Positions 3,141 to 41,057 of a DNA stretch of 64,000 nt are shown here, in pieces. The stretch is from an uncultured Bacteroidota bacterium (GTDB lineage Bacteria; Bacteroidota; Rhodothermia; Rhodothermales; Salinibacteraceae): positions 2,881 through 66,880 of the forward strand of contig CAJXKO010000008.1 in the NCBI GenBank assembly GCA_913055845.1, read 5' to 3'. Position numbers and translations under genes: made by a program. The notes below the pieces were generated by a model that did not search any database, was not told the DNA's origin, and saw nothing but the letters and a program-made list of their open reading frames with translations. Positions within the stretch are counted from its first letter, which is position 1; the number at the start of each line of letters is the position of its first letter.

Positions 3141-3171
3141 GACTGAGGCTCCTGGACTGAGGCTCCTGGAC
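3141..3171. repeat. Perfect 14-nt tandem duplication GACTGAGGCTCCTG x2 plus partial third copy (GAC)
   Basis: Read directly: 3141-3154 and 3155-3168 are identical, and 3169-3171 repeats the first 3 nt. Lies in the non-coding gap upstream of the WecA-like gene. Confidence 0.9.
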
Positions 3172-3314
3172 CAAGACGATTTCCGTACCGGAACGTCCGG
3201 TGAGGGGAGGCCCCCTCGGAGACTGGCGGGGCGCTGGCTTTCCGCAGTGCACCGTTGTGTCCACCAGCCGAGCGCGTACCCTTTACCACCTGGCGCGTGC
3301 GCTAGAAATTTATT

Positions 3315-5183
3315 ATGGACCTGCTCTTTTCGGATGCCGCCCACACCCTGTGGGCCGGCGCCGTGTCCTTTCTTGTCGGCCTGGGACTCACGCCCGCGCT
3401 GGGGCGGTGGGCCCGGCGCCTCGACCTGGTCGACCGGCCGAGTGAAGACCGGTGGGGGCGGCGCCCTGTGGCCCTTCTCGGGGGAATGGCCATCGCCGGC
3501 GGACTCACGGCGGGCGTGCTCTGGGCGGGGGCGCAGTCGGTGTGGTCGTGGCCGGTGTGGGCCGGGGCGCTTCTCATGTTTGGGCTCGGGCTGGCCGATG
3601 ACCTGCGCGGGGTGACGCCCGTGATCAAGGTTCTCGGTCAGGTTGTGGCGGCGGCGCTGGTCCTGTACGCCGGGCTTGCCTTTTGGCGCGGCGGGCCGCT
3701 CTGGGTCTTTACCCCGCTCACGTTTTTGTGGGTGATCGGGGTCACCAACGCTGTCAACCTGATCGACGGCATCGATGGTCTTGCGGGCGGCGTGACGGCG
3801 GTCGCCGCCGCAACGCTCGCCGTCATTAGCGGGATTCTTGGGCACTGGCCGTTGGCCGCCGTGATGGCGGCCGTGGCGGGTGGGAGCCTGGGCTACCTCC
3901 CGTACAACGCCCCGCCGGCGCAGATTTTTATGGGGGACTGTGGGAGCCTGTTGCTTGGATACCTGCTGGCGGTCGGGGCCCTTGGCGTACAGGGCAGTGG
4001 GGAGCCGGTCGTCGGGACGCTCGTGCCGATTGCCGTCCTCGCGGTCCCCATTGCGGATACGACGTTTGTGACGATCACGCGCCTGCTGCGGGGGCAGTCG
4101 ATTCGAGACGGCGGCACCGACCACGTGCACCATCGGCTCGTGAAGCTCGGCTTTTCGGAGGGGGAGGCCGTGCTACTGCTCTGTGGGGCAAGTGGGCTGT
4201 TTGGGGCACTTGCGCTGTCCACATTCTGGATGGAAACTGCCCTGGTGTTGGCCCTGGCGGCCCTGGTCGCCGTGGCCCTGGCCGTGTTTGGGGTATACCT
4301 GGCCACGACCGGCGCCTACGCGGCCCCCGGCGCCTCGCGCACCCTCAGCACCAGTCAGCGCGTAGGGTCGTTTCTGCGGACCTACGGGGGCGGGGCCTCC
4401 TGGAAGGCCGTGGTGGGCATGATTGCGGACTTGCTCCTGGTTGGGGCTGCCTTTGTCGTGGCAATCCACCTGCGGCACGGGGGCGCGCCGCCGCCCGCCG
4501 TGTCTGACCTCGCCATGCAGGCGTTGCCGGCCCTCATCGTGGCCAAACTGGGGGTGTTCTACGCCGCGGGGCTCTATCAGGGCATCTGGTCGCACGCGGG
4601 GACGCCGGAAGTGCTGCGCCTCATCCTGGCCTCCATGGGTGGCTCTCTGGTCGTGGGGGCCGGGCTTTGGGGCTGGGCCGGTGCCGCGCCCGTAGCCCTC
4701 CTCATTATCGACTGGGGCATCACGACGCTGGTTGTAGGGGGCGTGCGGTTCGGCTTCCGGGCGTTGCGTCAGTCGGTGGTGGCGCACCAGGCGGCGGGGC
4801 GGCGCATTCTTCTGTACGGCAGTGGAGCCGACGAAATGCTGGCCCTGCGCTCGCTTCGCCGTTGGCCCGACGGCAATTTTGCGGTCGTCGGACTCCTGGA
4901 ACAGGACGAGCGGCGCCACGGCCAGCGTGTGCAGGGAGTGGAGGTCCTGGGGGGCGTGGCGGACCTATCCGCACTCTGTACCGATCGCGACGTCGACGAA
5001 GTCGTCGTGCCTGAGGGGGCGACCGATGAGGAGACGCGGCGCCGCATTCGGGCGCAGTGCCAGGAGGCAGGCGTGCCGTGTCGGTACTTTACCGTTGCGC
5101 TCCGGTCTCCTGAGGAGGCCGACTCGCCCTCCCTGTCCCGCGCTCCGGGCGACGGCGCGCCCACCCGCTCGTCGTCGGCGTAG
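3315..5183 (+). CDS. MraY/WecA-family (GT4) polyprenyl-phosphate HexNAc-1-phosphate transferase fused to a C-terminal TM plus Rossmann-like module
   Basis: 622-aa ORF. The multi-TM N-terminal half carries NAVNLIDGIDGLAGG, typical of MraY/WecA. The C-terminal ~250 aa add further TM segments and RILLYGSGADEMLAL...FAVVGLLEQDERRHGQRVQGVEVLG, which resembles the N-terminal module of WbaP/CapD-type proteins. Confidence 0.8.
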   Translation: MDLLFSDAAHTLWAGAVSFLVGLGLTPALGRWARRLDLVDRPSEDRWGRRPVALLGGMAIAGGLTAGVLWAGAQSVWSWPVWAGALLMFGLGLADDLRGVTPVIKVLGQVVAAALVLYAGLAFWRGGPLWVFTPLTFLWVIGVTNAVNLIDGIDGLAGGVTAVAAATLAVISGILGHWPLAAVMAAVAGGSLGYLPYNAPPAQIFMGDCGSLLLGYLLAVGALGVQGSGEPVVGTLVPIAVLAVPIADTTFVTITRLLRGQSIRDGGTDHVHHRLVKLGFSEGEAVLLLCGASGLFGALALSTFWMETALVLALAALVAVALAVFGVYLATTGAYAAPGASRTLSTSQRVGSFLRTYGGGASWKAVVGMIADLLLVGAAFVVAIHLRHGGAPPPAVSDLAMQALPALIVAKLGVFYAAGLYQGIWSHAGTPEVLRLILASMGGSLVVGAGLWGWAGAAPVALLIIDWGITTLVVGGVRFGFRALRQSVVAHQAAGRRILLYGSGADEMLALRSLRRWPDGNFAVVGLLEQDERRHGQRVQGVEVLGGVADLSALCTDRDVDEVVVPEGATDEETRRRIRAQCQEAGVPCRYFTVALRSPEEADSPSLSRAPGDGAPTRSSSA

Positions 5184-5438
5184 AAGGCCTGGTCGTAACG
5201 CCTCTACTGGGGGCGTGTCGATACCCGCGGCTCCGAAGGCGGGACGAGAGGGCCGACGTCCTGCAGAGGGCCTTTGCTGGGGCGGCTGTTTGTAGGCAGG
5301 CATCTTGCGAGAAGCCTCCTGCGGACAGATGTCCGGCGAGAAGAACCGCCCGAGTGGCCCCAAGGGCGCGCTACGGGACGCGACTCGTCCGCCCAGCCCC
5401 CCTGTTTTTGCTTTTCCCCGATACGCTTCGAGGCTCCG

Positions 5439-6287
5439 ATGTGTACACTGCTACGGCACGGACTCTTCGCCACAATTTCTGGGCTCATCCTGGTCCTCGG
5501 GGCCGTGGTGCCCTGCGGGGCGGACGCCCAGTCCCTGCGGACTCACCTGCCGCGCTCCATCAATGAGTCCGCCGGGCTGGGGTATGCAGGGGGCGAAATT
5601 GCGGGGGAGGGGCATGGGGGACAAGGGCCCGCGCCGGCCCTCACCGCCGGTACGCCGACGGCCTACGGGGCCGAGTTGGGGGATGTCTTCGGAGGGGTCG
5701 CCTACCAGCGCTACCTGGCGGCGGGCATTCCCGAGAGAGATGATGGGGCAGCGTTCATCGGCGTAGGCATAGGTGATGCGCACGAGGCTGTCGGCCTCGA
5801 ACTCACGTACGCGCCATACGATTTGGTGGAAGAGCCCCTCAGCGACGGAAGCGTGAGCCTGAAAATTCACCGCCACCTTTACAGGGGACTGGCCATCGCC
5901 GTGGGAATGGAAGACCTGATCCGCTACGGCGACCGCATTAGTGGAAGCGCCTACGTCGTGGCGAGCCAGACGGTCCGGGTGAACAGGGGCGTGCTGACTG
6001 GCATGTCGGCCACCCTGGGCGTGGGGGACGGGCGCTTCAACACCATGGAGAATCTCTCATCAGGGACGAACGCGGCCGGCGTGTTCGGGGGACTCAGCGC
6101 CCAGTTTGCCGACCGCGTACACGTGCTGGGCACCTGGCACGGGCAGGATCTCAATGTTGGAGGGTCGTTCGTGGTGCCGGGCCCCGTTCCCATGACGGTC
6201 ACGCCGGTCTGGGTGAACGTGCTCGACGAGCACGTGGATGGCCATCGATTTGCCATAAGCGTAGGGACGAGCGTCCAGGTCCTCTGA
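5439..6287 (+). CDS. Hypothetical secreted or outer-membrane protein
   Basis: ORF 5274..6287. I moved the start to ATG 5439, which gives the signal peptide MCTLLRHGLFATISGLILVLGAVVPCGADAQS. Gly/Ala-rich with beta-strand-like alternation. No family recognised with confidence (possibly YjbH-like). Confidence 0.5.
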   Translation: MCTLLRHGLFATISGLILVLGAVVPCGADAQSLRTHLPRSINESAGLGYAGGEIAGEGHGGQGPAPALTAGTPTAYGAELGDVFGGVAYQRYLAAGIPERDDGAAFIGVGIGDAHEAVGLELTYAPYDLVEEPLSDGSVSLKIHRHLYRGLAIAVGMEDLIRYGDRISGSAYVVASQTVRVNRGVLTGMSATLGVGDGRFNTMENLSSGTNAAGVFGGLSAQFADRVHVLGTWHGQDLNVGGSFVVPGPVPMTVTPVWVNVLDEHVDGHRFAISVGTSVQVL

Positions 6288-6557
6288 CGTGTCCTGGGGA
6301 AGCGGGGCAGCTCCACTCTCCCGAAGGACGAAGCGACGCGGGGTGGTCCCGGTAAAATCACCCGGAAGCTCTCCAATCCTACGGATGCTCCGTGCTCGTG
6401 GGCTGGTCCCCAGCCGATCTTCGATTCCCGGAGGGGAGGTCTGAGGGCTCCGCAGGGGGCAGGGACGGGCTGTTGCGGGATGGAGACAGAACAGCAGGTC
6501 CCCTGATTCGGGGCCGGAGGGCCGTTGCCGTGTGGCGTATCTGGGAGTCAACAGCGA

Positions 6558-7343
6558 CTACCACTGGGCAAAAACGCCCAAGGTGCCACCCGTGTGTTGA
6601 AACACCTCGTCGTCACTGTACCGAACGGCGGCGGTTACCCCAACCCCCGACGTGAGGAAATGCCGAAGGCGCACGCTCACAAAAAAGGTGCGCGTCACCA
6701 GTATCTCAGAGCGTGAATTGATGGGTTCGACGCTCCTCCCAAGCCCGCCCTCCACGTCGACGTAGGAGAGGGAAGAGGCCGGGCCGTAGAAGCGACGTGC
6801 GCCAATGCGCTGGGCAACGGCCCATGTATCCGGTCGAGGCCCGAGGGCGGTGCGCGTTCGAAGGTACCACGAGCCCACGTACCGACCGAGGCCAGGCCCG
6901 AACTGATGAACGTCCTCGCTCCGGTATCGCCGCCAGCTATACCGCCCCGATAGCTCCCACGCCCCGACAGATTGAAAGACGCCGGACTGAAGGGTCCCCT
7001 GGGGCCGGACATCTGCGGTTGGGCTGAGGCCCGCTTTCACGTGCCCGTAGGCCCCGGCCCAGAGATCGGGCCATGCGTCGATCTGCAGGCCCCCGTCCGT
7101 GGTGCCGAAGCGCTGCTGCCGGATGACGGTCGCCATTAGCGTTCCGTGGGATGTCTCTCGTTTGAGAGAGACAGTCCACCGGCGCCAGTTCTGCCTCCCT
7201 TCCGAGAGGCGGTCATAATCGTAGCGCGTGGCCGTCTCCCAGACGCGCTCAGTCAACCCAGGGTGCTGGGCGGCCGTCTGCCTCGCGCCTCCGAAGGCCA
7301 CGACGCACATCAGTGCGGCAAAAAGCAGGGCGTGATTACGCAT
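6558..7343 (-). CDS. YaiO-like outer-membrane beta-barrel protein
   Basis: ORF 6558..7595. I moved the start to ATG 7343 (MRNHALLFAALMCVVAFGGARQTAAQ signal peptide), 2 nt after the TAA of the upstream GT2 gene. Aromatic-rich alternating strands, RFGTTDGGLQIDAWPDLW segment, C-terminal ...GVFAQW. YaiO assignment is from memory of the family pattern. Confidence 0.55.
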   Translation of the reverse strand: MRNHALLFAALMCVVAFGGARQTAAQHPGLTERVWETATRYDYDRLSEGRQNWRRWTVSLKRETSHGTLMATVIRQQRFGTTDGGLQIDAWPDLWAGAYGHVKAGLSPTADVRPQGTLQSGVFQSVGAWELSGRYSWRRYRSEDVHQFGPGLGRYVGSWYLRTRTALGPRPDTWAVAQRIGARRFYGPASSLSYVDVEGGLGRSVEPINSRSEILVTRTFFVSVRLRHFLTSGVGVTAAVRYSDDEVFQHTGGTLGVFAQW

Positions 7344-10745: not shown

Positions 10746-10777
10746 ATCCGGCAACGCTCGCATCCGGCAACGCTCGC
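10746..10777. repeat. Perfect 16-nt tandem duplication ATCCGGCAACGCTCGC x2
   Basis: Read directly: 10746-10761 equals 10762-10777. Lies in the 720-nt gap between the divergent REC operon and the S9 peptidase gene. Confidence 0.9.
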
Positions 10778-21149: not shown

Positions 21150-21560
21150 TCAAATTTTCTTGGACTCGCTGCTACACTGCTCGTGGGGCGTGGTCGGGGT
21201 GCGCGTGTAGTCCAGGGTTGTGTCCGGAAGGGCCACCGTGAGCGTATCGCCGTTGCGGGTCAGGTCCCACCGCGTGCCCGCGGAGTGTAGCAGCGCCTCG
21301 TCCTTCCAGCGCACGGTCGAAGGCATCATCATGCACTCCCCACGGTCGTCGATGCGCCACACCGAGAGCATGGGGAGTCGGATCTGAAGGTAGACCGTGT
21401 GGTCCTCGAAGCGGTGCACCCACGTCCCGTCCGGCTGGGCCGTGGCGACCGTGGGGCCGCCGAGCCACGAGACGACGCAAAGTGAGAGTGTTAGCACGAA
21501 TCCGCGGAGGGCGAAAAGACGTCGGGCCGGGACATGGTCGGAGGGGCCACGGTCGGGCAT
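21150..21560 (-). CDS. Hypothetical secreted protein
   Basis: ORF 21150..21701. Start ATG 21560 gives a hydrophobic signal-like segment (LFALRGFVLTLSLCVVSWLGGPTVATAQ). No family recognised. Confidence 0.45.
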   Translation of the reverse strand: MPDRGPSDHVPARRLFALRGFVLTLSLCVVSWLGGPTVATAQPDGTWVHRFEDHTVYLQIRLPMLSVWRIDDRGECMMMPSTVRWKDEALLHSAGTRWDLTRNGDTLTVALPDTTLDYTRTPTTPHEQCSSESKKI

Positions 21561-21920
21561 GGCATTCGGGCCAGGAGGAAAAAGAGTGTGGAGGGGCGCT
21601 GCGCGCGGGCAAGAGGGAGGAAGGGGCGGCAGGCTCCTTTGGGCATCTCGCCCCGCGTGCGTTTCGCCCATGGGGAGCGTCTTTCGTATCGGGGGGTGCA
21701 CGGGAGCGTCGCAAGCTTTCTAAAATTTTCCGTGGGTAGTGCACCGCTCGTGGCAGGGACCGTGCCGGGAGGAGGCGAGTGGCGGCGGCATCGTTGCGCG
21801 CTTTTCCCGATCACTGGTCCCAGGTCCACCGTGGTGGATCCGTCCCGGGAACAGTCGCGTCGGGGGCTAGCTTCACCGAGCGGTCATGCACACGTCCACA
21901 AGACCGTCCTGCCCGAGCCC

Positions 21921-23315
21921 ATGCTTTCGACCGGTAGTTTCCTCGTCGCTGGTCTTGTCCTCATCGCCGCCCTGTGCGGGGCCGGGGGCACTTGGTTTCT
22001 CCTGCGGCGCCGGGCGGCACGGGCCTACGAGCGGGGCCGGCAGGCCAACGACGGAGACCTCTCGGCGCTGGAGCAGGAGGTGCGTGGCCTGAAGGCGCAG
22101 TTGGAGGAGGTGAAACGCGAGCGAGAGGACCTGAATGACCAGGTGGGCGCCCTCCGGGAGACGAAGTCCACGCTCGAAACCAAGAATGAGACGCTGCGGG
22201 AGCGCCTAGAGCAGCAGGAGGCGCGCATCGAGGAGCAGCAGCAGGCGCTTCGCGACCAGTTCGAGAACCTCGCCAACGACATCCTGGAGGCGAAGGCCGA
22301 GAAGTTCACCGAGCAGAACGAGGAAAATCTCGACCAGCTTCTCACCCCGTTGCGGGAGCGGCTGGGCGAGTTCAAGCAGAAGGTGGAAGAGACATATGAG
22401 AAGGGGCTCAAGGAGCGAAGTCAGCTGGAGACGCAGATCGAGCAGCTGAGCGACCTCAACGAACAGATGTCCGAGCGGGCCGAAGCCCTCACCGAGGCCC
22501 TCGACGGCCAGTCCAAGACGCAGGGCGACTGGGGCGAGATGGTGCTCGAGCGGATTCTGGAGGAATCGGGCCTGACGGAGGGACGAGAGTACCACACCCA
22601 GGTAAGCGCGACCGATGGGCAGGGCCGCCGTCTGCGGCCGGACGTGGTGGTGGAGATGCCGGAGGAACGGTTCGTGGTGGTCGACGCCAAAGTATCACTT
22701 ACCGCGTACCGGCGGTTCGTCTCGGCCGACGCCGAGGAGACGAAAGAGGAGCACCTCCAGACCCATCTGCAGTCGGTCCGCGGCCACGTCAACGGCCTCG
22801 CCGAAAAAAACTACGACCGCCTCTACGGCGACCGAAGCCCCGATTTTGTTCTCCTGTTCATGCCGATTGAGCCGGCCTTCGCCCTTGCGCTCCAGCACGA
22901 AGAGGGCTTGTATCAGAGTGCATTCGACCAGGGGGTTGTCATCGTGAGTCCCACGACGCTGCAGGCCACGATCGCGACCATTGCCAACATCTGGCGGCAG
23001 GAGCGCCAGACCCAGAACGCCCGCGAGATTGCCGAGCGGGGCGGGCGGCTCTACGACAAGTTCGTACTCTTTGCGGAGGCGCTCGAGGAAATTGGACAGC
23101 GCATTGAGCAGGCCCGAGACAGCTACCGCACCGCCAAGAAGCGGCTCAGTGACGGCCGGGGCAACCTACTGCGACAGGTGGAAATGCTGCGTGAGTTAGG
23201 GGCCGAAAACAGCAAAACGCTGCCCGACACGTTTCAGACCGATCTTGAGTCGGTCCGAAGGACTGCCTCCGCGGACGGTACACCGTCCAATGCCGAAGCC
23301 GACGGGGACGCGTAG
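21921..23315 (+). CDS. rmuC: DNA recombination protein RmuC
   Basis: ORF 21534..23315. Start ATG 21921 gives an N-terminal TM segment (MLSTGSFLVAGLVLIAALCGAGG). A long Glu/Leu/Gln coiled coil follows, then a conserved C-terminal region (PDVVVEMPEERFVVVDAKVSLTAY...FVLLFMPIEPAF...VVIVSPTTL). Confidence 0.85.
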   Translation: MLSTGSFLVAGLVLIAALCGAGGTWFLLRRRAARAYERGRQANDGDLSALEQEVRGLKAQLEEVKREREDLNDQVGALRETKSTLETKNETLRERLEQQEARIEEQQQALRDQFENLANDILEAKAEKFTEQNEENLDQLLTPLRERLGEFKQKVEETYEKGLKERSQLETQIEQLSDLNEQMSERAEALTEALDGQSKTQGDWGEMVLERILEESGLTEGREYHTQVSATDGQGRRLRPDVVVEMPEERFVVVDAKVSLTAYRRFVSADAEETKEEHLQTHLQSVRGHVNGLAEKNYDRLYGDRSPDFVLLFMPIEPAFALALQHEEGLYQSAFDQGVVIVSPTTLQATIATIANIWRQERQTQNAREIAERGGRLYDKFVLFAEALEEIGQRIEQARDSYRTAKKRLSDGRGNLLRQVEMLRELGAENSKTLPDTFQTDLESVRRTASADGTPSNAEADGDA

Positions 23316-23333
23316 CGGCGCGGAATCCAGGCG

Positions 23334-23714
23334 TTACGCGACCCCGGCTTCGCGTCGCACCCGGTCGGCCCCACGCTCGGTGAGAATGAGGCTCGGGCTG
23401 GCCCCGTCAGGAAACCCCAGAAGAAGATCGTCGGCCGGCCGAGGCGTGTCGTCGAGCACCTCGTAGAACAACAGCGCGCCCCACTCGTCAAGCTCGTGAT
23501 CCGCGACGGGGTAGGCGGCCACCGGGCACGTTATGCCTCGGGCGTAGAAAGCTGCGCGGTCCTGCAGCGGATCGGCGGGCACGAGTGGCGCGTCCACCCG
23601 ATACCGACGCTGGGAGCGGGCCGCTTTCCGGTTGGCTTCCACCGCCTTCGCGGCGGGGAGGGGCTCGGGGGCGACCCAGAGCGGGGGGCGATCGTCGAAC
23701 GTGATTTGCTGCAT
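23334..23714 (-). CDS. Hypothetical protein
   Basis: 126-aa ORF with host-like GC-rich third codon positions. Convergent with rmuC. No family recognised. Confidence 0.5.
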   Translation of the reverse strand: MQQITFDDRPPLWVAPEPLPAAKAVEANRKAARSQRRYRVDAPLVPADPLQDRAAFYARGITCPVAAYPVADHELDEWGALLFYEVLDDTPRPADDLLLGFPDGASPSLILTERGADRVRREAGVA

Positions 23715-24114
23715 CGGTGGGGACGGTCGTGGAAAGACGGTCGTGGAGAATGTGGCACTACCTGTAGGGGCGCGCGGCGGAGCGTCTCCGAAACCAGTTT
23801 TTGCATGCCTGCATGCAGGAATCGTAGCCCAGCCGGGACCGTTTCGTCGTCCACGTTACCCGCATGGAAGGAGTTCGTTGGGAAGGGCGATCCCTTTCTT
23901 TGTGTCTCGGACCCCTTCGGCCATGGTTGATTGGGCGGAGAGGGCGTTGCGAGGCCCGGCATGGGCTGGTATGTTGGGGGCGCCGGCGCCGGGGGGCTCT
24001 GAAGAGGGCGGCAATTTTCCCGTGGTCTCCAAACGTCGAGACCACATCTCTGTTAGAGGCCGTGTTCTCGAAAACACATGCCCCGGTTTCGTCCACAGGT
24101 CCTGATTGGTCTTT

Positions 24115-25143
24115 ATGCCCGACGACGTTGACGAGCGCGCCGACATCGACGAGCTCCGCGAGCAGATTGAGGCGGCATCGATTGAGAGCGAGGAGGAGGC
24201 CGAGCAGTTTCGCATCCAGTACCTCGGCCGCAATCAGGGGGCCATTCCGGCCCTCTTCGACCAGATTGGCGACCTGCCCCCCGAGGAGCGGCCCGAGTTT
24301 GGGAAGCGACTCAACGCGCTGAAGGAGCGGGCCCAGGAGCGGCTCGACGCGGCGAAGGCTCGCCTCAAGCGCGAGGAGCAGGCGGGTGGGCCCGACATCG
24401 ACCGTACGCTGCCGGGCCGGCGCGGCTTCCGCGGCTCCACGCACCCCCTCACGCAGACGCTCGACGAGATTCTGCGCATCCTGCAGGGGCTCGGCTTCTC
24501 GACCTACGAGGGGCCGGAGATCGAGACCGACTGGCACAACTTCTCGGCGCTTAATTTCCCGCCCGACCACCCGGCGCGGGACATGCAGGACACCTTCTTC
24601 CTGAAGGACGCGCCGGAGGGGGAAGAACCGCGCGTCCTCCGCACCCACACGTCGCCCGGCCAGATTCGGATCATGGAGAATCAGGAGCCGCCCATTCGGG
24701 TGGCGGTGCCGGGACGCGTGTACCGCAACGAGGCGATCTCGTACAAGTCGTTCTGCCTCTTTCACCAGGTGGAGCTGCTGTACGTGGACGAGGGGGTGAC
24801 GATGGCGCAGCTCAAGCAGGTGCTCTACAGCCTCGCCCGCGCCCTCTTCGGCGACGACGTGACGCTCCGCTTCCGTCCCAGCTACTTCCCCTTCACTGAG
24901 CCGAGCGCCGAGGTGGACGTCTGGTGGGCGGACGAGGAGAGCGACGACGGCGGCCAGTGGATGGAAATCTTGGGTTGCGGCATGGTGCACCCCAATGTCT
25001 TCGAGGCCGTGGACGTGGACCCGGAGCGGTACACCGGCTACGCCGTGGGGATGGGCGTGGAGCGCATGGCCATGCTCCGCCACGGCATCGACGACATTCG
25101 GATCTTCTACGAGAACGATGTGCGGTTTCTCGACCAATTCTGA
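24115..25143 (+). CDS. pheS: Phenylalanine--tRNA ligase alpha subunit
   Basis: ORF 24106..25143 opens on TTG; the first ATG is 24115. Class II aaRS motifs seen: [55 protein letters not shown]. Confidence 0.95.
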
Positions 25144-25147
25144 CAAT

Positions 25148-25175
25148 TGCGAAGTGCGAATCTCGAATTTCGAAT
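25148..25175. repeat. Array of four tandem heptads NNCGAAT (TGCGAAG TGCGAAT CTCGAAT TTCGAAT), left boundary of the pheS-pheT insert
   Basis: Read directly. Starts 5 nt after the pheS TGA (25141-25143). Also part of a local hairpin, TGACAATTGCGAA...TTCGAATTGTCA (25141-25180). Confidence 0.85.
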
Positions 25176-25185
25176 TGTCAGGGGG

Positions 25186-25530
25186 CTATTTCTCGCGAGC
25201 GGTTTTCTTGGACGCGACAATGATCGAGGCAATCTGACGCGCCTCGTCCTGTAGCTCCGAAACCTGAGAAGTGGGGCCAGCGCCAAGCTCGTCGAGAAGC
25301 TCCAGCCAGAACTGCGATTCATCGGCCTCTTCTTCCACAAGAGCAAGCTTGGCAATGAAATCCTTTCGGGATCGGGCATGACAGGCGGCGCGGTAATTCG
25401 CCCCTACGGATTTGGCAGACCGGAGGAGTTGCTTCCGAATAACGCGACATTCAGGAGCATTGGGAAGCGATTTACAAAGGTGAATCACGTTCAGCGCGAA
25501 CCGCTTTGTCCGAGGTCGGAGATCTGACAT
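25186..25530 (-). CDS. Four-helix-bundle protein (23S rRNA intervening-sequence protein / Avd-like family)
   Basis: ORF 25186..25623. Start is ATG 25530 (MSDLRPRTKRFALNVIHLCKSLP...). The QLLRSAKSVGANYRAACHARSRKDFIAKLALVEEEADESQFWLELL pattern is characteristic of this family. Antisense to pheS and pheT. Confidence 0.8.
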   Translation of the reverse strand: MSDLRPRTKRFALNVIHLCKSLPNAPECRVIRKQLLRSAKSVGANYRAACHARSRKDFIAKLALVEEEADESQFWLELLDELGAGPTSQVSELQDEARQIASIIVASKKTAREK

Positions 25531-25601
25531 TGGCACCAGGAGATTCCATGACGAAAGAAGCCGTCGTGCGATAGACACGTGAGCACGATGGATGTAACGC
25601 C

Positions 25602-25629
25602 ATTCGCCATTCGAAATTCGCAACTCGAA
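25602..25629. repeat. Array of four tandem heptads ATTCGNN (ATTCGCC ATTCGAA ATTCGCA ACTCGAA), inverted copy of the 25148-25175 array
   Basis: Read directly. Its reverse complement is TTCGAGT TGCGAAT TTCGAAT GGCGAAT, matching the left array at 23 of 28 positions by my count. Ends 1 nt before the pheT ATG (25631). Confidence 0.85.
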
Positions 25630-25630
25630 A

Positions 25631-28123
25631 ATGGATATCAGTTTTCGCTGGCTAAGCAGCTACGTTGAGCATGACTGGACGCCCAAGGAGTTGGCCGAGC
25701 GCCTCACCATGGCCGGGCTGGAGGTCGAGACCGTCGAGCCCGTTGGCCAGTCGCTCGACGGCGTGGTGGTGGGCGAGGTGAAGACCGTCCGCGCGCACCC
25801 GAACGCCGATCGCCTCGTGCTCTGTGACGTGGACCTCGGCGACGGCGACCCCTCGCAGATTGCGTGCGGCGCGCCGAATGTGGCGGAGGGGCAGAAGGTC
25901 CCCGTCGCCACGGTGGGCACCACCCTGTCGCTTCCCGACCCGGACGACCCCGAGAAACGAAAAGAGCTGACGGTGGAGGCGCGCGAGCTGCGGGGCGAGG
26001 CCTCGAACGGCATGATCTGCGCGGAGGATGAACTGAGCCTCTCCGACGACCACTCCGGCATCATGGTGCTCGACGATGACGCAGCCGTCGGCACCCCCTT
26101 CCCGGACTACCTCAACGCTCACGGCATGCCGAGCACCGACGCGGTGCTCGACATCGAACTCACCCCCAACCGCCCCGACGCCGCCAGCCACATCGGCGTG
26201 GCCCGCGACGTGTCGGCCCTTGCAAAGAGTGAACTGCAGCGTCCCGAGGTGGAGACCCCGTCGGAGAGCGGCGCGGTGGCCGACCAGGTCACCGTAAACA
26301 TCGAGGACGAAACCGGCTGTCCCCGCTACGTCGCCCTTCGGGTGCGGGACGTGGACGTGATCGAGTCGCCCCTCTGGCTGCGCCGCCGCCTGACGGCCAT
26401 CGGCCTGCAGCCGCGCAACCACGTGGTGGACGTGACCAACTTCGTGCTCCACGAGTGCGGCCAGCCGCTCCACGCCTTCGACCTCGACGCGATCGCCGAC
26501 GACACGATCGTCGTCCGCTCCACGGACGCGGAGACGACCTTCACCACGCTCGACGACGAGGAACGGGAACTCCCCGAAGACACGCTTCTCATCTGCGACG
26601 CCGAGAAGCCCGTCGCCGTGGCCGGCGTGATGGGCGGGGCCAACTCCGAGGTGTCGACGGAGACGACGGACGTGCTCATCGAGAGCGCGTACTTCGACCC
26701 CTCCACGATCCGCCGCACGGCGAAGGCGCTCGACGTGCAGACCGACTCGTCGTACCGCTTCGAGCGGGGCGTGGATCGCGACGGGCAGGTGTGGGCCGCC
26801 GCCCGCGCCGCCGAACTGATCGCGGAGCTGGGCGGTGGCACGATCGTCCCCGGCATGGTCGACGCGCACCCCAGCCCCCCCGACGAAAAAACGGTCGCCC
26901 TCCGCCCCGACCGCCTCACGCAGGTGCTGGGTACCGAGGTCGCGACCGACGAGGTGACGCGTCTGCTGGGCGCCATCGGCTTCGAGATCGAGGAAGGCGA
27001 GGACGCGCTCCACTGCACCGTCCCCACCTGGCGCCCCGACGTCTCGATCGAGGAGGACCTGATCGAGGAGGTGGCGCGCCTGCACGGCTACGACCAGATT
27101 CCGGAGCCGGAGCGCGTGCCGGTGCCGAGCCGCACGCCGCACCAGCCGCCCGAAGAAACGCTGGAGCGGCAGGCGCGCGGGCTGCTGAAGGGACTCGGCT
27201 ACCGCGAGATCTACACCAACAGCATGCTGCGCCTGGACCGGGCCGAGCGCTTCAACGTGCCGCCTGCGGGGAGCGACCGGGCGCCGGTGGTGGAGACGAA
27301 GAACCCGATCTCCGAGGAGATGGCCGCCCTCCGCCCGCGCCTCCTCCCGGGCACGCTCGAAGTGATGCACCACAACCGCAACCACGGCCAGGAGGCGCTC
27401 CGCGTTTTCGAGTTCGGCCGCGTCTTCCGCCGCGCCACCGAGGACGACGCCCCGATCGTCCCCGGCTACGCCGAGCATCCGGCCCTGCTGATCGCCCTCA
27501 GCGGCCCGCACGCGCCGACCGGCTGGGACACCGAGCCGCGGGACGCGGACCTCTTCGACCTGAAAGGCACCGTCGAGACGCTGCTGGACGACCTGCGCGT
27601 GCCGGACCTCGCCCTCACGCCCCGCGACGGGGACGCCGGGACGAACGGCACGGCCCCCGTCACCCAGCACCACATCGACGTCACCGCGGGCGACACGCCC
27701 CTCGGCACCGTGGCCCGCATCCGCAACGACGTGGCCGCCGACTTTGACCTCGACACGCCTGTCTTCGTGGCCGAGTTCAACTGGGCCGCGCTCGTCGACG
27801 CCGCCAAGGCGGAGCAGCACCGCGACTACGAACCGGTGAGCCGCTTCCCGGTGGTGGACCGCGACCTCGCCGTGCTCGTCCACGCCGATCAGCCGGTGGG
27901 GCCGCTCCAGGACACGATCCGCGATGCCGGCGCCCCCTTGCTCCGCCGGGTGGACGTGTTCGACGTGTACGAGGGCGAGGGCATCGACGAGGACGCCAAG
28001 AGCGTGGCCTTCACGCTCCGCTTCGGCGCCGACCGCACGCTGACCGATGAGGAGGTGGATGGTCGGATTGAGGCCATCGTCGACCGCCTCGATGCGGACC
28101 ACGGGGCGCGCCTGCGCCGGTAG
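25631..28123 (+). CDS. pheT: Phenylalanine--tRNA ligase beta subunit
   Basis: 830 aa. N-terminal tRNA-binding fold (VVGEVKTVRAHPNADRLVLCDVDLGDG), B3/4 and B5 regions, C-terminal anticodon-binding-like domain (RFPVVDRDLAVLV...DVFDVYEGEGI...KSVAFTLRF). Confidence 0.95.
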   Translation: MDISFRWLSSYVEHDWTPKELAERLTMAGLEVETVEPVGQSLDGVVVGEVKTVRAHPNADRLVLCDVDLGDGDPSQIACGAPNVAEGQKVPVATVGTTLSLPDPDDPEKRKELTVEARELRGEASNGMICAEDELSLSDDHSGIMVLDDDAAVGTPFPDYLNAHGMPSTDAVLDIELTPNRPDAASHIGVARDVSALAKSELQRPEVETPSESGAVADQVTVNIEDETGCPRYVALRVRDVDVIESPLWLRRRLTAIGLQPRNHVVDVTNFVLHECGQPLHAFDLDAIADDTIVVRSTDAETTFTTLDDEERELPEDTLLICDAEKPVAVAGVMGGANSEVSTETTDVLIESAYFDPSTIRRTAKALDVQTDSSYRFERGVDRDGQVWAAARAAELIAELGGGTIVPGMVDAHPSPPDEKTVALRPDRLTQVLGTEVATDEVTRLLGAIGFEIEEGEDALHCTVPTWRPDVSIEEDLIEEVARLHGYDQIPEPERVPVPSRTPHQPPEETLERQARGLLKGLGYREIYTNSMLRLDRAERFNVPPAGSDRAPVVETKNPISEEMAALRPRLLPGTLEVMHHNRNHGQEALRVFEFGRVFRRATEDDAPIVPGYAEHPALLIALSGPHAPTGWDTEPRDADLFDLKGTVETLLDDLRVPDLALTPRDGDAGTNGTAPVTQHHIDVTAGDTPLGTVARIRNDVAADFDLDTPVFVAEFNWAALVDAAKAEQHRDYEPVSRFPVVDRDLAVLVHADQPVGPLQDTIRDAGAPLLRRVDVFDVYEGEGIDEDAKSVAFTLRFGADRTLTDEEVDGRIEAIVDRLDADHGARLRR

Positions 28124-37336: not shown

Positions 37337-38458
37337 ATGTCCTTCCCTGCGTCGTCGAGTCCAGCCGTCACCTCCCTCCGCTCGACGGGCCGCACTCCAA
37401 TTCTGTTCACTGTCAACATGGGGCTGGAAGACGTGGTGATCAATGAGTTCCGGGTGCGGGCCGAACAGGCAGGGCTGGAGGTGTCCAAGACCGACGATGA
37501 ACCGTTTGGACTGCAGAGCTACGCCCTTGTGGCAGTGGACGCCGCCCCCGAGGCGGCGCTCAACATTGCCCGGCAGATGCGATCGGTACACCACGTGCTG
37601 GCTCCGCTCTATACGTTCGTGTTCCCGGGCGACGGTGAGGCGGCGCTCCAGGCGATTCACGATACTGTGATGGAGCTCGACGTGCCGGCCATGGAGACTG
37701 CGGAGACCTTTCGTGCCTCCTCGGTGCGGCAGGGCGAGCACGATTTCACGAGTGTCGACGTGCAGAAGTGGGCCGGTGGGGCCCTCGATGCCCGTTACGA
37801 CGCGGCCGTCGACCTTGAAGACTACGACGTAGAGGTACGGGTAGACGTGCACGACGACCGCTGCCTCGTGAGCGTGCAGCACACGCGGGAGGCCCTGAGC
37901 CGGCGCCAGCTGGAGGGATACCAGCCCCGAGCCGCGCTCAAGGCCAACGTGGCCTATGCGCTTCTCCACCTCGCCCACTTTGAGGGCTCGCCCGACGTGC
38001 TCCTCGACCCCTTCTGCGGCTCCGGCACCATTCTCCTGGAGGCGGCCGAGCGGTGGCCGGAGACGCGCGCTTACGGCAACGACTGGGACGAGGAGGCCGT
38101 GGCAGGGGGCCGCACGAACGTGGGGCTCGCGGGAGTCGACGACCGGGTTTCCATCCGCAAGGGCGACGTGTGGCACCTCGCGGAGACATTTGAGGACGTA
38201 ACGGCGGACCTCATCGTCACCAATCCCCCCTTCGGGGTGCGCATGGCCAGCAGCATGGACTTCTTCCCGTTTTACCGCCGCGTGCTTGAACAGATGGCCG
38301 CGGTGCTGCGTCCCGCCGGAACTGTCGTGATGCTGGTCCTCCGCGAAGGGCCCTTCAACGCGGCGATCAGCGAGACGGCGGCCTTCACCATCCGCCACGT
38401 GCGGGTGATCGAGATTGGCGGGCTCTACCCACACGTGTTCGTGCTGGAGCGGCACTAG
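37337..38458 (+). CDS. THUMP-domain class I SAM-dependent RNA methyltransferase
   Basis: 373 aa. N-terminal ferredoxin-like/THUMP region. Methyltransferase motifs LLDPFCGSGTILLEAA (motif I) and LIVTNPPFG (motif IV, NPPF). Confidence 0.8.
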   Translation: MSFPASSSPAVTSLRSTGRTPILFTVNMGLEDVVINEFRVRAEQAGLEVSKTDDEPFGLQSYALVAVDAAPEAALNIARQMRSVHHVLAPLYTFVFPGDGEAALQAIHDTVMELDVPAMETAETFRASSVRQGEHDFTSVDVQKWAGGALDARYDAAVDLEDYDVEVRVDVHDDRCLVSVQHTREALSRRQLEGYQPRAALKANVAYALLHLAHFEGSPDVLLDPFCGSGTILLEAAERWPETRAYGNDWDEEAVAGGRTNVGLAGVDDRVSIRKGDVWHLAETFEDVTADLIVTNPPFGVRMASSMDFFPFYRRVLEQMAAVLRPAGTVVMLVLREGPFNAAISETAAFTIRHVRVIEIGGLYPHVFVLERH

Positions 38459-38582
38459 GGCGCAATGCATAATACGTGAGGAGTAGTGTGTAGTGTGTAT
38501 TGCGTAGCCCTCGGCGTCGAACATCGAACATCCGACGCTCCAACCTTCGCCCCGAAACGCTCAACTCCCCAACGCCACCCCC

Positions 38583-41057
38583 GTGACCGCCGACGTCGTC
38601 CTGCCCCTTCCGCTCGATCAGGCCTACACCTACCGCGTGCCGGCGGAGCAGGCCGATGCCCTGCAGGTGGGCGCCCGTGTGCTCGTGCCCTTCCGCAACC
38701 GGCGCCTGACCGGGGTGGTCGTAGGGGAGGGGCCACCGCCGGAGGCGCTCGACTTTCAGGTCAAGCCCGTGCACGACGTCCTCGATGACGTGCCAGTGTG
38801 CACCCCTGGGCTTCTGGATCTCACGAAGTGGATTGCCGACTACTACGTGTGCGGCTGGGGGGAAGCGCTGAAGGCCGTCCTGCCCGCCGGCACCACAGTC
38901 GAGTCGGAGCACCGCCTCGCCCGCACCGACGCTGAGCCGGGTGACTGGGCCGGGCACGATGTGGGCCGGGCGGTCCTTGAGGATGTAGCAGAGCACGGCA
39001 AGACGACCCTCGCGGCCGTCCGTAAGCGGTTGGGGCCGGCCGTGCCGCTTTCGCTCATCCGTCGTATGGACGCCGACGGCGTACTCACGCTGGAGACGAC
39101 CCTCTCCGACGAACAGGTGCAGGCCAAAACCGAAATGCACCTGCGCTTTGCCCCGGCGTTTCGGCACGAGGACGCTGCGGACGATCTCATCGAGCAGCTG
39201 CGCGGGGAGAAGCAGCAAGCAGTGATTCGGGCCCTCGCGGGCTTTCGGGCACAGGGCACCCCGGAGCCGCGCCAGGCCGACGTGGTGGAGCGGACCGATG
39301 CGCCCTACTCTACCATCCGCAGCCTCGTGGACAAGGGCATGATTGAACGGGTGGAAAAGGAGGTGCTGCGCTCGCCGCTCGACGACCTGCCGCCCCCGGA
39401 TCCACCGCCCAACCACGACCTACTTCCCGCCCAGCAGGACGCCCTCGACGCCATCACGGAGGCGGTGGGCGACACCCAGTACGGCACGTTTCTCCTGCAC
39501 GGCATCACTGGAAGCGGCAAGACGGAGGTGTACATCCGCGCACTCAAGGCGGTGCGGGCGCAGGGGCGCACCGGCATCATCCTCGTGCCCGAAATTGCCC
39601 TCACCCCGCAGACTGTTCAGCGCTTCCGGTCGCACTTCGCAGGGGAGATTGCCGTTCTCCATTCGCAGATGAGTCGGGGTGAGCGCTACGACGCGTGGCG
39701 GCGACTTCGCACGGGCGACGCCGCCATCGCCATCGGCCCCCGCTCGGCCGTCCTCGCGCCGCTGGAGAACCTGGGGCTCATCGTGGTCGACGAGGAGCAC
39801 GAGACCTCGTACAAGCAGTTCGACCCGGCGCCCCGCTACCACGCCCGCGACGTGGCCGTGATGCGGGCCCACCAGGCCGATGCCGCCTGTGTTCTTGGCT
39901 CGGCGACGCCCAGCCTGGAGAGCACCATGAACGCGCGCTGGGGCAAATACACCCGGCTCGAACTGCCGGAGCGGGTGCCCGACGCCTCTGGCCAGACTGC
40001 CGCCCTCCCCGACGTGCGCGTCCTCGACCTCACGACGCAGCGGAAGAAGCACCAGCTCGACGGCGCCCTGGCCGATCCGCTACGCAGGGCCATCCGGGAG
40101 CGGGTGGACCGGGGCGAACAGGTCATTCTGCTCCAGAACCGCCGCGGCTACGCGCCGGTGCTGGAGTGTGAGGACTGTGGATGGGCCCCGTCGTGTGGCA
40201 ACTGCTCGGTGAGCCTCACGCTGCACCAGGGCGCCGGTCGGCGACAGCTCCGGTGTCACTACTGTGGCCACGCGGTGCGCGCCCCCCATCAGTGCCCGCA
40301 GTGCGGGGGGGAAGCGATCGGACAGATTGGGGTCGGCACGCAGCGCGTGGAGCAGGAGCTGGAGGCGGTGGTTCCCGAGGCCACCATCCTCCGCATGGAC
40401 CGCGACACCACGAGCCAGAAGCACGGCCACCACCGGATTCTGCGCCGCTTCCGCAACGGGGCCGACGTGCTCCTCGGCACGCAGATGATCGCGAAGGGGC
40501 TTGACTTCGGGCGCGTCACGCTCGTGGGCGTGGTGGACGCGGACGTGGGCCTCCTTTTCCCCGACTTTCGCGCCGAGGAGCGCACCTTTCAACTCCTCAC
40601 GCAGGTCGCTGGCCGGGCCGGGCGTGCCGACCTGAAGGGCGAGGTGATCCTGCAGACCCGCAACCCTGACCACCCGGCCCTCCGCCATGCGACGCAGCAC
40701 GACTACGAGGGGTTTGTGGAGGAGGAGTTGCCCACCCGTCGGCAGTTTGGCTACCCGCCGTTCGGGCACGTGGCGACGGTTGAGTTTCGGGGACCGAACG
40801 AGGACCGGGTGGAGCGCCTGGCGGTGAACTGGACGGAGCAGCTGCGTGCCCAGGCCGGACCGGTGGAGGTGATGGGGCCGGAGCCGGCGTTCATCCAGCG
40901 CGTGAAGAAGCAACACCGCTACCGTACCCTTCTCAAATCCCGAAGCGGGGGGGCGCAGCCCCTCCAGGCCGCCCTCTGCCACGCGAAAGACGCCCACGGC
41001 GCCCCGCCCAACGGCTACCACGTGGCCATCGACGTCGATGCGCAAGACGTGCTGTAG
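38583..41057 (+). CDS. priA: Primosomal replication-restart helicase PriA
   Basis: 824 aa with a GTG start. Walker A LLHGITGSGKTEVY, DEEH box VVDEEHETSYKQ, Cys-rich zinc insert (CEDCGWAPSCGNCSVSLTLH...LRCHYCGH...CPQCGG), QVAGRAGR motif. Confidence 0.9.
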   Translation: MTADVVLPLPLDQAYTYRVPAEQADALQVGARVLVPFRNRRLTGVVVGEGPPPEALDFQVKPVHDVLDDVPVCTPGLLDLTKWIADYYVCGWGEALKAVLPAGTTVESEHRLARTDAEPGDWAGHDVGRAVLEDVAEHGKTTLAAVRKRLGPAVPLSLIRRMDADGVLTLETTLSDEQVQAKTEMHLRFAPAFRHEDAADDLIEQLRGEKQQAVIRALAGFRAQGTPEPRQADVVERTDAPYSTIRSLVDKGMIERVEKEVLRSPLDDLPPPDPPPNHDLLPAQQDALDAITEAVGDTQYGTFLLHGITGSGKTEVYIRALKAVRAQGRTGIILVPEIALTPQTVQRFRSHFAGEIAVLHSQMSRGERYDAWRRLRTGDAAIAIGPRSAVLAPLENLGLIVVDEEHETSYKQFDPAPRYHARDVAVMRAHQADAACVLGSATPSLESTMNARWGKYTRLELPERVPDASGQTAALPDVRVLDLTTQRKKHQLDGALADPLRRAIRERVDRGEQVILLQNRRGYAPVLECEDCGWAPSCGNCSVSLTLHQGAGRRQLRCHYCGHAVRAPHQCPQCGGEAIGQIGVGTQRVEQELEAVVPEATILRMDRDTTSQKHGHHRILRRFRNGADVLLGTQMIAKGLDFGRVTLVGVVDADVGLLFPDFRAEERTFQLLTQVAGRAGRADLKGEVILQTRNPDHPALRHATQHDYEGFVEEELPTRRQFGYPPFGHVATVEFRGPNEDRVERLAVNWTEQLRAQAGPVEVMGPEPAFIQRVKKQHRYRTLLKSRSGGAQPLQAALCHAKDAHGAPPNGYHVAIDVDAQDVL

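Follow-up and report, generated by a model that had tools for sequence, protein, structure and literature searches.

We asked what kind of element holds pheS and pheT apart in a 64,000-nt stretch of DNA (hereafter the window) from an uncultured Salinibacteraceae bacterium (Bacteroidota; assembly GCA_913055845.1, contig CAJXKO010000008.1, forward-strand positions 2,881 to 66,880). pheS, which encodes the alpha subunit of phenylalanyl-tRNA synthetase (24106-25143, + strand, start codon predicted; Pfam tRNA-synt_2d, 4.8e-96, and Phe_tRNA-synt_N, 3.4e-19), ends with the TGA at 25141-25143. pheT, which encodes the beta subunit (25631-28123, + strand; Pfam B3_4, tRNA_synthFbeta, FDX-ACB, B5 and tRNA_bind), begins with the ATG at 25631-25633, leaving a spacer of 487 nt (25144-25630). 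The only good open reading frame (ORF) in this gap lies on the minus strand at 25530-25186; it encodes a 114-aa protein of the four-helix-bundle family known as 23S_rRNA_IVP, S23p or TIGR02436 (PF05635), and it is enclosed by two arrays of four heptads. A first inspection of the letters alone, the sequence-only reading, had reported the gap, the antisense gene and the arrays, and we confirm both their coordinates and their letters. It had likened the insert to the intervening sequences (IVSs) of 23S rRNA or, alternatively, to a small insertion cassette with terminal repeats. We conclude with high confidence that the locus is an IVS-like cassette of the kind typical of its gene family. By analogy with rRNA IVSs, we also lean slightly towards an RNA-level function for the arms, which would pair in the pheS-pheT transcript and thereby loop out the insert, probably for excision.

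The left array (25148-25175) consists of the heptads TGCGAAG TGCGAAT CTCGAAT TTCGAAT and the right array (25602-25629) of ATTCGCC ATTCGAA ATTCGCA ACTCGAA, so that the cassette begins 5 nt past the pheS stop codon and ends 1 nt short of the pheT ATG. Tandem Repeats Finder reports a period of 7 on both sides, with 4.7 and 3.4 copies. Aligned unit by unit, the two arrays match as reverse complements in 22 of 28 positions, one fewer than first counted; allowing G·U pairs, the count is 22 for RNA of the + strand and 24 for RNA of the - strand. A repeat search lengthened the arms to 32 nt (25144-25175 and 25602-25633, 78%), which takes in the pheT ATG, and the extended pairing spans the entire spacer. 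On the + strand, the pheS-proximal arm (25144-25177, the heptads plus flanking bases that extend the pairing) is the G-richer of the two (G7/C5) and the pheT-proximal arm (25602-25633) the C-richer (G4/C8). Owing to the palindrome TTCGAA, the arrays are also 78% direct copies of one another, and the left array is able to form a hairpin by itself. The pattern CGAA-N3-CGAA-N3-CGAA occurs three times in the window, each time in this spacer, where 0.01 occurrences were expected: the arrays are not a product of chance. As the sequence-only reading had remarked, they are AT-richer than their surroundings (43% GC, against 48-55% for the gap and 66% for the whole window). No second copy of the cassette was found in the 64 kb. 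A search of the gap against Rfam returned no family at E<=10, a lone chance match to a long noncoding RNA falling inside pheT, and a search of the whole window at gathering scores returned none either, rRNA included.

The enclosed gene had been described as Avd-like, and profile and structure comparisons bear this out. PF05635 matches at 1e-17 (64.7 bits, against a cut-off of 33.8) and TIGR02436, "four helix bundle protein", at 1.4e-24 (86.4 bits, against a cut-off of 24); the sequence also matches PDB entry 2RLD (BT_0352) at 2e-16. An AlphaFold monomer model (mean predicted local distance difference test score, pLDDT, 96.2) has helices at 5-20, 26-50, 55-82 and 87-113. Foldseek ranked 2RLD and then Xcc0516 (2GSC) highest, with template-modelling (TM) scores of 0.84-0.87, followed by Avd, the accessory protein of the Bordetella phage diversity-generating retroelement (DGR), both free (4DWL) and in its complex with reverse transcriptase and RNA (8UB7), with TM scores of 0.77-0.79 at about 17% identity. 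The modelled product has an Avd-like fold. Unlike a DGR avd, however, the gene has no reverse transcriptase or template/variable repeat next to it; its neighbours are pheS and pheT, and the heptad arrays are the only repeats in the gap. The family numbers at least about 8,000 members among the matches listed for PF05635/TIGR02436, and we know of no function for it outside Avd of DGRs. Compared with its orthologue in locus L004 of a relative (below), the ORF has a nonsynonymous divergence (dN) of 0.106 and a synonymous divergence (dS) of 1.85, dS being saturated against the other orthologues, a pattern that indicates purifying selection. Of the solved relatives, 2RLD comprises five chains and 2GSC is described as a pentamer (PMC4990558).

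Is this arrangement peculiar to the window? The sequence-only reading had suggested looking for similar arrays beside other members of the family, and they are there. Our sample comprised 80 diverse metagenomic members that are 46-60% identical to the window protein, that is, its own subfamily; an array was called where a period of 7 or 8 gave at least 16 of 21 lag matches within 150 nt of the gene, and 3,000 windows from the same contigs served as controls. Of 77 genes, 82% had an array on one or both sides, against 2.4% of the control windows; arrays lay upstream of 65% and downstream of 49% of the genes. The best period was 7 in 75 arrays, 8 in 14 and 9 in 2. Within the same contigs, 61% of 92 gene-adjacent spacers contained arrays, against 17% of 29 other spacers. 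Upstream and downstream flanks were complementary (score >=14) in 56% of the loci and in 0.2% of 651 mock placements, and the consensus heptads of the two arms were identical in 13 of 19 comparisons within a locus, against 16 of 342 between loci. The usual design is a set of tandem heptads upstream of the gene (GCGGATT, GCGGAAT, TTGGATT, GCGAAGT, CAGATTT and others) and their reverse complement downstream, with a median stem of 32 nt. A heptad hairpin around the gene is the norm for the PF05635 family, and the finding is more general than was assumed at the outset, since the arrays are the usual home of the whole gene family.

The same design holds outside this sample and in varied settings. 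All six annotated plasmid genes for a "four helix bundle protein" that we inspected lie among such arrays, some nested and some very long; they come from four phyla and include copies from Planktothrix, two Nostoc, Chlorohelix (Chloroflexota), Bernardetia (Bacteroidota) and Treponema. One metagenomic copy with the window's own TGCGAAT heptads sits between lpxC/fabZ and lpxA and fills both spacers from stop to start, while others occur within restriction-modification loci or loci of the defence island system associated with restriction-modification (DISARM). What sets the window apart is orientation. The upstream neighbour is co-oriented with the family gene in 61 of 72 callable loci, and a gene lying antisense between two co-oriented genes, as here, was found in just 4, so that the antisense orientation noted earlier is a rare case for the family.

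Several side observations concern the same loci. On the Planktothrix (L303) and Chlorohelix (L304) plasmids and in loci L176-L182, family members lie inside defence loci: between DISARM drmD and an MmeI-type enzyme, between a DUF1156 gene and a Swt1-type HEPN gene, or between a type I restriction S subunit and an AIPR abortive-infection gene; in the Planktothrix and Chlorohelix cases each spacer flanking the gene holds its own complete nested heptad hairpin. On the Treponema saccharophilum plasmid pTS1 (L307, about 273-600), some 45 GAAAGNG units and their complement stand directly upstream of the four-helix-bundle gene, and a further C-rich array lies downstream.

The arrays themselves are constrained in length and composition. 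Among 57 loci there are 28 distinct heptads, with a loose consensus G-C-G-G-A-(T/A)-T (GCGGAWT) from which the GCGAAT-type unit of the window is one step removed; the median array has 4.4 units, and 66 of 97 arrays have 4 or 5. Whichever strand is read, the 5' arm has many G and few C (T626 A523 G522 C204). These regularities bear on a first alternative, in which each heptad is bound by one subunit of the four-helix-bundle pentamer, or by another factor, and in which the pairing of array and gene would reflect autoregulation, or the protection or propagation of the repeats, instead of a passive stem. The consensus recurring across phyla, the narrow array length set against the pentameric solved relatives and the base bias of the 5' arm all speak for such sites. 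So do the rise of protein identity with heptad similarity (rho = -0.30) and the example of Avd, a homologue that is a basic, positively charged pentamer and binds a defined RNA element in the DGR ribonucleoprotein. However, common descent alone predicts the correlation between protein and heptad, and within the family binding is known for DGR Avd alone. Moreover, arrays stay intact where the gene is frameshifted (L001-3, below) or absent, and of 120 loci on viral contigs that match (CGAAN3)x4, among them many genuine heptad arrays and solo hairpins, not one carries a family gene within 200 nt. We consider this alternative unlikely; were the protein to bind heptads, a large orphan family would gain a ligand. 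Because those 120 loci lack the gene nearby, heptad hairpins are a class broader than the family, in which the family gene has a strongly preferred home. Among the loci collected ahead of the viral contigs, arrays of the CGAA type were restricted to gene-bearing loci, and none occurred in about 75 gene-less pheS loci.

The likeness to rRNA IVSs is closer than had been supposed. IVSs of 23S rRNA that contain an S23p ORF are reported from Leptospira, among other hosts. In Coxiella burnetii the IVS is 428 nt long with a 28-bp terminal stem, and three tandem GACAGAT heptamers, whose copy number varies between strains, stand upstream of the S23p ORF (PMC4990558). RNase III cleaves this stem at the first repeat in vitro, rapid amplification of cDNA ends places the IVS ends there, and the authors judged the S23p protein dispensable (PMC4990558). 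In the window cassette as in this IVS, terminal inverted repeats form a stem about 28 bp long, the 5' arm contains tandem heptamers of variable copy number, the enclosed ORF belongs to the PF05635 family and the total size is about 430-490 nt; in both, the protein seems dispensable in some lineages (a deletion in Coxiella AuQ01 there, the L001-3 frameshift here). Some differences stand against these likenesses. Firstly, the heptad is TGCGAAT rather than GACAGAT. Secondly, the cassette fills the spacer of a protein-coding operon from stop to start codon instead of occupying helix 25 or 45 of 23S rRNA. Thirdly, its ORF is antisense to the host transcript. An IVS-type cassette can therefore occupy an essential protein-coding operon, stop codon to start codon, and it is this combination, an IVS-type cassette in an mRNA operon and antisense to it, that is new in the window locus.

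A second body of work describes tandem heptamers in bacterial spacers, for which there is no agreed role (PMC4679880, PMC4692102). Xanthomonas GGGAATC and Nostoc GGGGA(C/T)T heptamers occur between co-oriented genes, preferably as four units, G-rich past the stop codon and C-rich ahead of the start codon, and in Xanthomonas 70-75 arrays form convergent inverted pairs; the study proposes G-quadruplexes and does not mention the four-helix-bundle family (PMC4692102). In Beggiatoaceae, cyanobacteria and Bacteroidetes, the heptamer TAACTGA is found immediately upstream of start codons (PMC4679880). The window arrays agree with these intergenic repeats in the 7-nt unit, the number of about four units, the co-oriented neighbours and the placement of a G-richer array after the stop and a C-richer one before the start, and the core sequences are similar as well (GGAAT/GGATT). 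Those papers, which propose G-quadruplexes or translational regulators (PMC4692102, PMC4679880), draw no connection to four-helix-bundle genes. A G-quadruplex reading of the window arrays was rejected, as the units TGCGAAT/TTCGAAT have no run of two or more G. Our literature search, which did not extend to subscription-only papers, found no link between the family in general and heptad arrays. The family-wide rule of gene and array, and its tie to the heptamer-repeat literature, appear undescribed in the searchable literature. The locus joins three topics that the papers we found treat separately: rRNA intervening sequences, heptamer repeats and Avd-like proteins.

We then asked what occupies the same slot in relatives, as the sequence-only reading had proposed, using further loci from a PheS scan of species-representative genomes and ranking them by PheS/PheT identity to the window. 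All close homologues of the gene, in Salinibacter and Salinivenus genomes and in hypersaline metagenomes, are antisense in pheS-pheT with heptad arrays at both ends. They fall into two types, A and B, whose inner units differ in most of both arms (CGAAT/ATTCG in A versus GGAAT/ATTCC in B), which is a compensatory change. Filled, empty-hairpin and repeat-less slots were all found. At PheS/PheT identities of 95/90%, locus L013 has a gene-less 67-nt hairpin of AACGTTC/G units. L007 (92/87%) has a type B gene, 62% identical to that of the window, with GGAAT heptads. L001-3 (88/87%) have a type A gene that is 95% identical and frameshifted past about codon 92, its arrays intact. L004 (95%, partial, and 79%) and L006 (87/76%) have type A genes, 84% and 78% identical, L168 (87/75%) and L009 (84/79%) have type B genes, and in L008 and L012 (84/77%) the spacer is about 100 nt with neither repeats nor a hairpin (z ~0). 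Across these Salinibacteraceae loci, the content of the slot is out of step with the relatedness of pheS and pheT.

The L001-3 frameshift is a 1-nt insertion (CTAGCAGG versus CTACAGG, at about locus positions 3270-3290), identical in the three Salinibacter sp. isolates GCA_947077785, GCA_947077795 and GCA_947077755; the corresponding database protein (P0009, 141 aa) begins upstream and covers just 82% of the query. Heptad type and position are kept in the orthologous cassettes L001-L006 despite saturated dS, and the ATG-proximal unit TTCGA(A/G) is retained in every cassette type. A further shared feature is the element CGTTA-N16/17-GTGTCTA, which in the window occurs once, on the minus strand at 25572-25599, in the stretch that separates the 5' arm from the gene's start codon. 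Exact copies are present in five distinct Salinibacteraceae cassettes (L004 with its duplicate contig L005, L007, L009, L167 and L168) and near-copies in L001-3 and L006, with none in the remaining loci. We regard it as a putative promoter or regulatory element for the antisense gene; scans of 25100-25700 for sigma-70 and intrinsic-terminator consensus sequences gave nothing. Types A and B have in common their orientation, the pheT-proximal TTCGA(A/G) unit and the CGTTA-GTGTCTA element. They therefore resemble divergent alleles of a single old cassette that has passed between lineages, not separate insertions.

Two loci from the same survey deserve separate mention. L167 (Salinibacter sp. metagenome-assembled genome, JBDGUL010000101.1, 1-520) is a second cassette elsewhere, beside a HIT-family gene, with 58% identity, GGAAT-type heptads and the same CGTTA-GTGTCTA element. 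Its contig starts within the upstream array, which suggests that assemblies break at heptad repeats. In L011 (Bacteroidetes bacterium QH_7_62_13, 4006-7005), no pheT follows within 3 kb after pheS and the sequence past the stop is different; the two genes are unlinked there.

The discordance between slot and host genes speaks for a second alternative, in which the inverted arrays are the ends of a unit moved or exchanged at the DNA level, for instance through array-to-array recombination or through fold-back or template-switch copying, so that their complementarity would come from copying and not from selection for an RNA stem. An empty slot in L013, type B in L007 and type A in L001 and L006 fit such exchange, as do the joint movement of heptad type with gene type, the low GC of the insert (48-55%, against 66% for the window), the hairpins nested within hairpins in Planktothrix, Chlorohelix and Nostoc, the termination of the L167 contig inside an array, and the lack of strand bias among G·U mismatches (below). 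The cassette also resembles repetitive extragenic palindromic (REP) hairpins, bacterial interspersed mosaic elements (BIMEs) and MITEs (miniature inverted-repeat transposable elements) in being an intergenic inverted repeat in an operon, with copies that do and do not contain an internal gene. It differs from them in having arms of tandem heptads whose sequence changes between loci, and in lacking both a cognate transposase, such as the REP-associated tyrosine transposase, and a target duplication. The bases flanking the arms (CAAT... on one side, ...AATG on the other) form no target-site duplication, neither transposase nor integrase was found at the locus, no tRNA gene that could have served as an integration target lies within the window, and the 64 kb hold no second copy. 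Recent transposition was rejected, since identical proteins on 8-9 contigs (P0102, P0095) are always in one gene context. The single genomic context of identical proteins also weighs against a unit that moves as DNA in general. The types A and B, moreover, resemble alleles that diverged from a single old insertion and were swapped through ordinary homologous recombination, and in many loci the boundaries fall within a few nt of stop and start codons, which suggests a function in expression. The proposal that the arrays are terminal repeats of an insertion cassette needs correction, in that they do not simply mark the ends of an insert: gene-less relatives keep the hairpin and hairpins are common without the gene. 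Nor was any transposase, target duplication or recent copy seen. We doubt that movement as DNA explains the arrays.

That the hairpin outlives the gene is apparent from the gene-less spacers. In more distant Rhodothermales, about 10 of 17 such spacers between pheS and pheT (67-190 nt) consist of repeated units some 7 nt long, with a 5' arm that begins right after the pheS stop and a reverse-complement 3' array that ends at, or within a few nt of, the pheT start. The units vary by lineage (ATGGNNN, GGTTCGG, GGGGTTG/CCCCAAT, GTTTGAG and others). Among the folded spacers, the clear heptad hairpins beat shuffled sequences with z = -2.7 to -5.2, and the last C-rich units ahead of the AUG are frequently unpaired. 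A tblastn search with the window protein detected no remnant of the gene in gene-less pheS loci, L017 and L019 included. Two outcomes that would have told against the sequence-only reading, arrays confined to this one site and relatives with the gap but no repeats, are not the pattern observed, as arrays flank family genes elsewhere and most short gaps in relatives hold a hairpin, L008 and L012 being exceptions. Because these relatives retain the hairpin in the same spacer, it appears as the persistent feature there and the gene as optional. This invites a third alternative, that the hairpin is a host element regulating pheS-pheT, as an mRNA stabiliser, a processing site or a means of translational coupling, in which the gene is an unrelated, tolerated insertion. 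Beyond the gene-less hairpins themselves, several of which leave their last C-rich pre-ATG units unpaired in the manner of a leader, it draws on the published heptamers that are G-rich post-stop and C-rich pre-start between co-oriented genes (PMC4692102) or lie immediately upstream of start codons (PMC4679880). It leaves unexplained, however, why 82% of family members sit in arrays across unrelated contexts and phyla and why heptad type co-varies with gene type at pheS-pheT, and the close relatives L008, L012, L024 and L032 do without any hairpin. We hold this alternative to be very unlikely. None of the three is mutually exclusive with the IVS-type reading.

Under the IVS-type reading that we favour, the arms would form an imperfect duplex of about 28-32 bp in any transcript crossing from pheS to pheT, with the 430-nt antisense insert looped out. 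This duplex would bring the pheS stop beside the pheT start, with the ATG partly paired, and would present a two-to-three-turn substrate for RNase III, as in rRNA IVSs. RNase III probably excises the insert, to judge by the analogous IVSs in 23S rRNA of Coxiella and other hosts. Whether by cutting or by mere looping, pheT initiation would be kept near pheS termination, and pheT expression would stay coupled to pheS despite the insert. The antisense gene is probably expressed from the other strand via its own conserved upstream element. The hairpin would be the lasting part and the gene a passenger that Salinibacteraceae have exchanged or lost on several occasions, probably via recombination through pheS and pheT.

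Folding calculations lend this mechanism partial support. The sequence-only reading had predicted a long stem enclosing the insert: the arms can indeed pair, but on the pheS-pheT strand the left array's own hairpin competes. The left:right duplex has an energy of -27.3 kcal/mol in the pheS-pheT sense (z = -2.7 against shuffles) and of -34.0 kcal/mol in the gene's sense (z = -5.3), and in seven pheS-pheT cassettes it ranges from -23 to -39 kcal/mol in the pheS-pheT sense (z = -1.9 to -5.0), within an overall range of -23 to -43 kcal/mol. When the gap was folded, both the minimum-free-energy and the centroid structure of the - strand contained the long stem. The competing local hairpin (25140-25181, + strand) pairs CTGACAATT (25140-25148, pheS stop included) with AATTGTCAG (25173-25181) around the self-complementary left array, with a self-fold energy of -16.0 kcal/mol; after the penalty for a 430-nt loop, the energy gap between it and the long stem is small. 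Its outer pairing is found in L001-3 and is missing in L004 and L006.

A number of results weigh against a stem that acts in the pheS-pheT mRNA. Firstly, the stem is more stable on the strand of the antisense gene in 6 of 7 cassettes, while on the + strand the minimum-free-energy and centroid structures both choose the local left-array hairpin over the long stem, and the whole-gap fold is non-significant (z = -1.1). Secondly, the stem is mismatched at about 2 of every 7 positions, most mismatches are uncompensated across 55 loci, and in those 55 stems G·U-type versus A·C-type mismatches favour neither strand (52 versus 41, p = 0.30). Because mismatches are mostly uncompensated and those of the G·U type show no strand preference, selection at the RNA level is not demonstrated. 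Thirdly, cutting by RNase III between pheS and pheT would sever a bicistronic mRNA, unlike the fragmentation of rRNA, whose pieces stay joined by the ribosome. Finally, if CGTTA...GTGTCTA is the promoter, the gene's own mRNA lacks the 5' arm. Should the stem nevertheless be cut by RNase III, this would to our knowledge be the first IVS-like excision from an mRNA. Because Salinibacter can be cultured and filled, empty and frameshifted alleles occur in nature, the roles of stem and protein are experimentally addressable in a simple system.

A wider reading can be offered tentatively. PF05635 genes and heptamer hairpins might form one pan-bacterial class of element, residing in transcribed operon spacers and existing in "full" (gene-bearing) and "solo" (gene-less) forms, with the rRNA IVS as the special case that was noticed first. 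The solo forms would be the cyanobacterial short tandemly repeated repetitive (STRR) sequences, to which the Nostoc GGGGA(C/T)T heptamers presumably belong, together with the Xanthomonas GGGAATC pairs, short rRNA IVSs and the empty pheS-pheT hairpins. The pentamer would then be a trans-acting partner that reads about one heptad per subunit and binds, protects, processes or propagates the repeats.

Elsewhere in the window, a second spacer with heptads lies between a THUMP-domain methyltransferase gene (37337-38458) and priA (38583-41057). This spacer (38459-38582) carries G-rich heptads after the stop and C-rich ones before the start: 3.6 copies of GTAGTGT and then two of TCGAACA give way to degenerate C-rich 7-mers that reach the GTG start. 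Its arms are non-complementary and the fold of 38483-38582 is no better than that of shuffled sequences. Upstream of pheS, the two longest minus-strand ORFs in the roughly 790 nt that follow rmuC (21534-23315), at 23316-24105, were scanned and contain no Pfam-recognisable gene. In three related loci, L001, L006 and L168, the genes rplT, rpmI and infC stand ahead of pheS, joined in the first two by thrS; the rplT-rpmI-infC-pheS cluster conserved in those relatives is broken in the window genome. Two perfect tandem duplications also occur in the window, one of the 14-nt unit GACTGAGGCTCCTG at 3141-3171 (2.2 copies) and one of the 16-nt unit ATCCGGCAACGCTCGC at 10746-10777 (2 copies).

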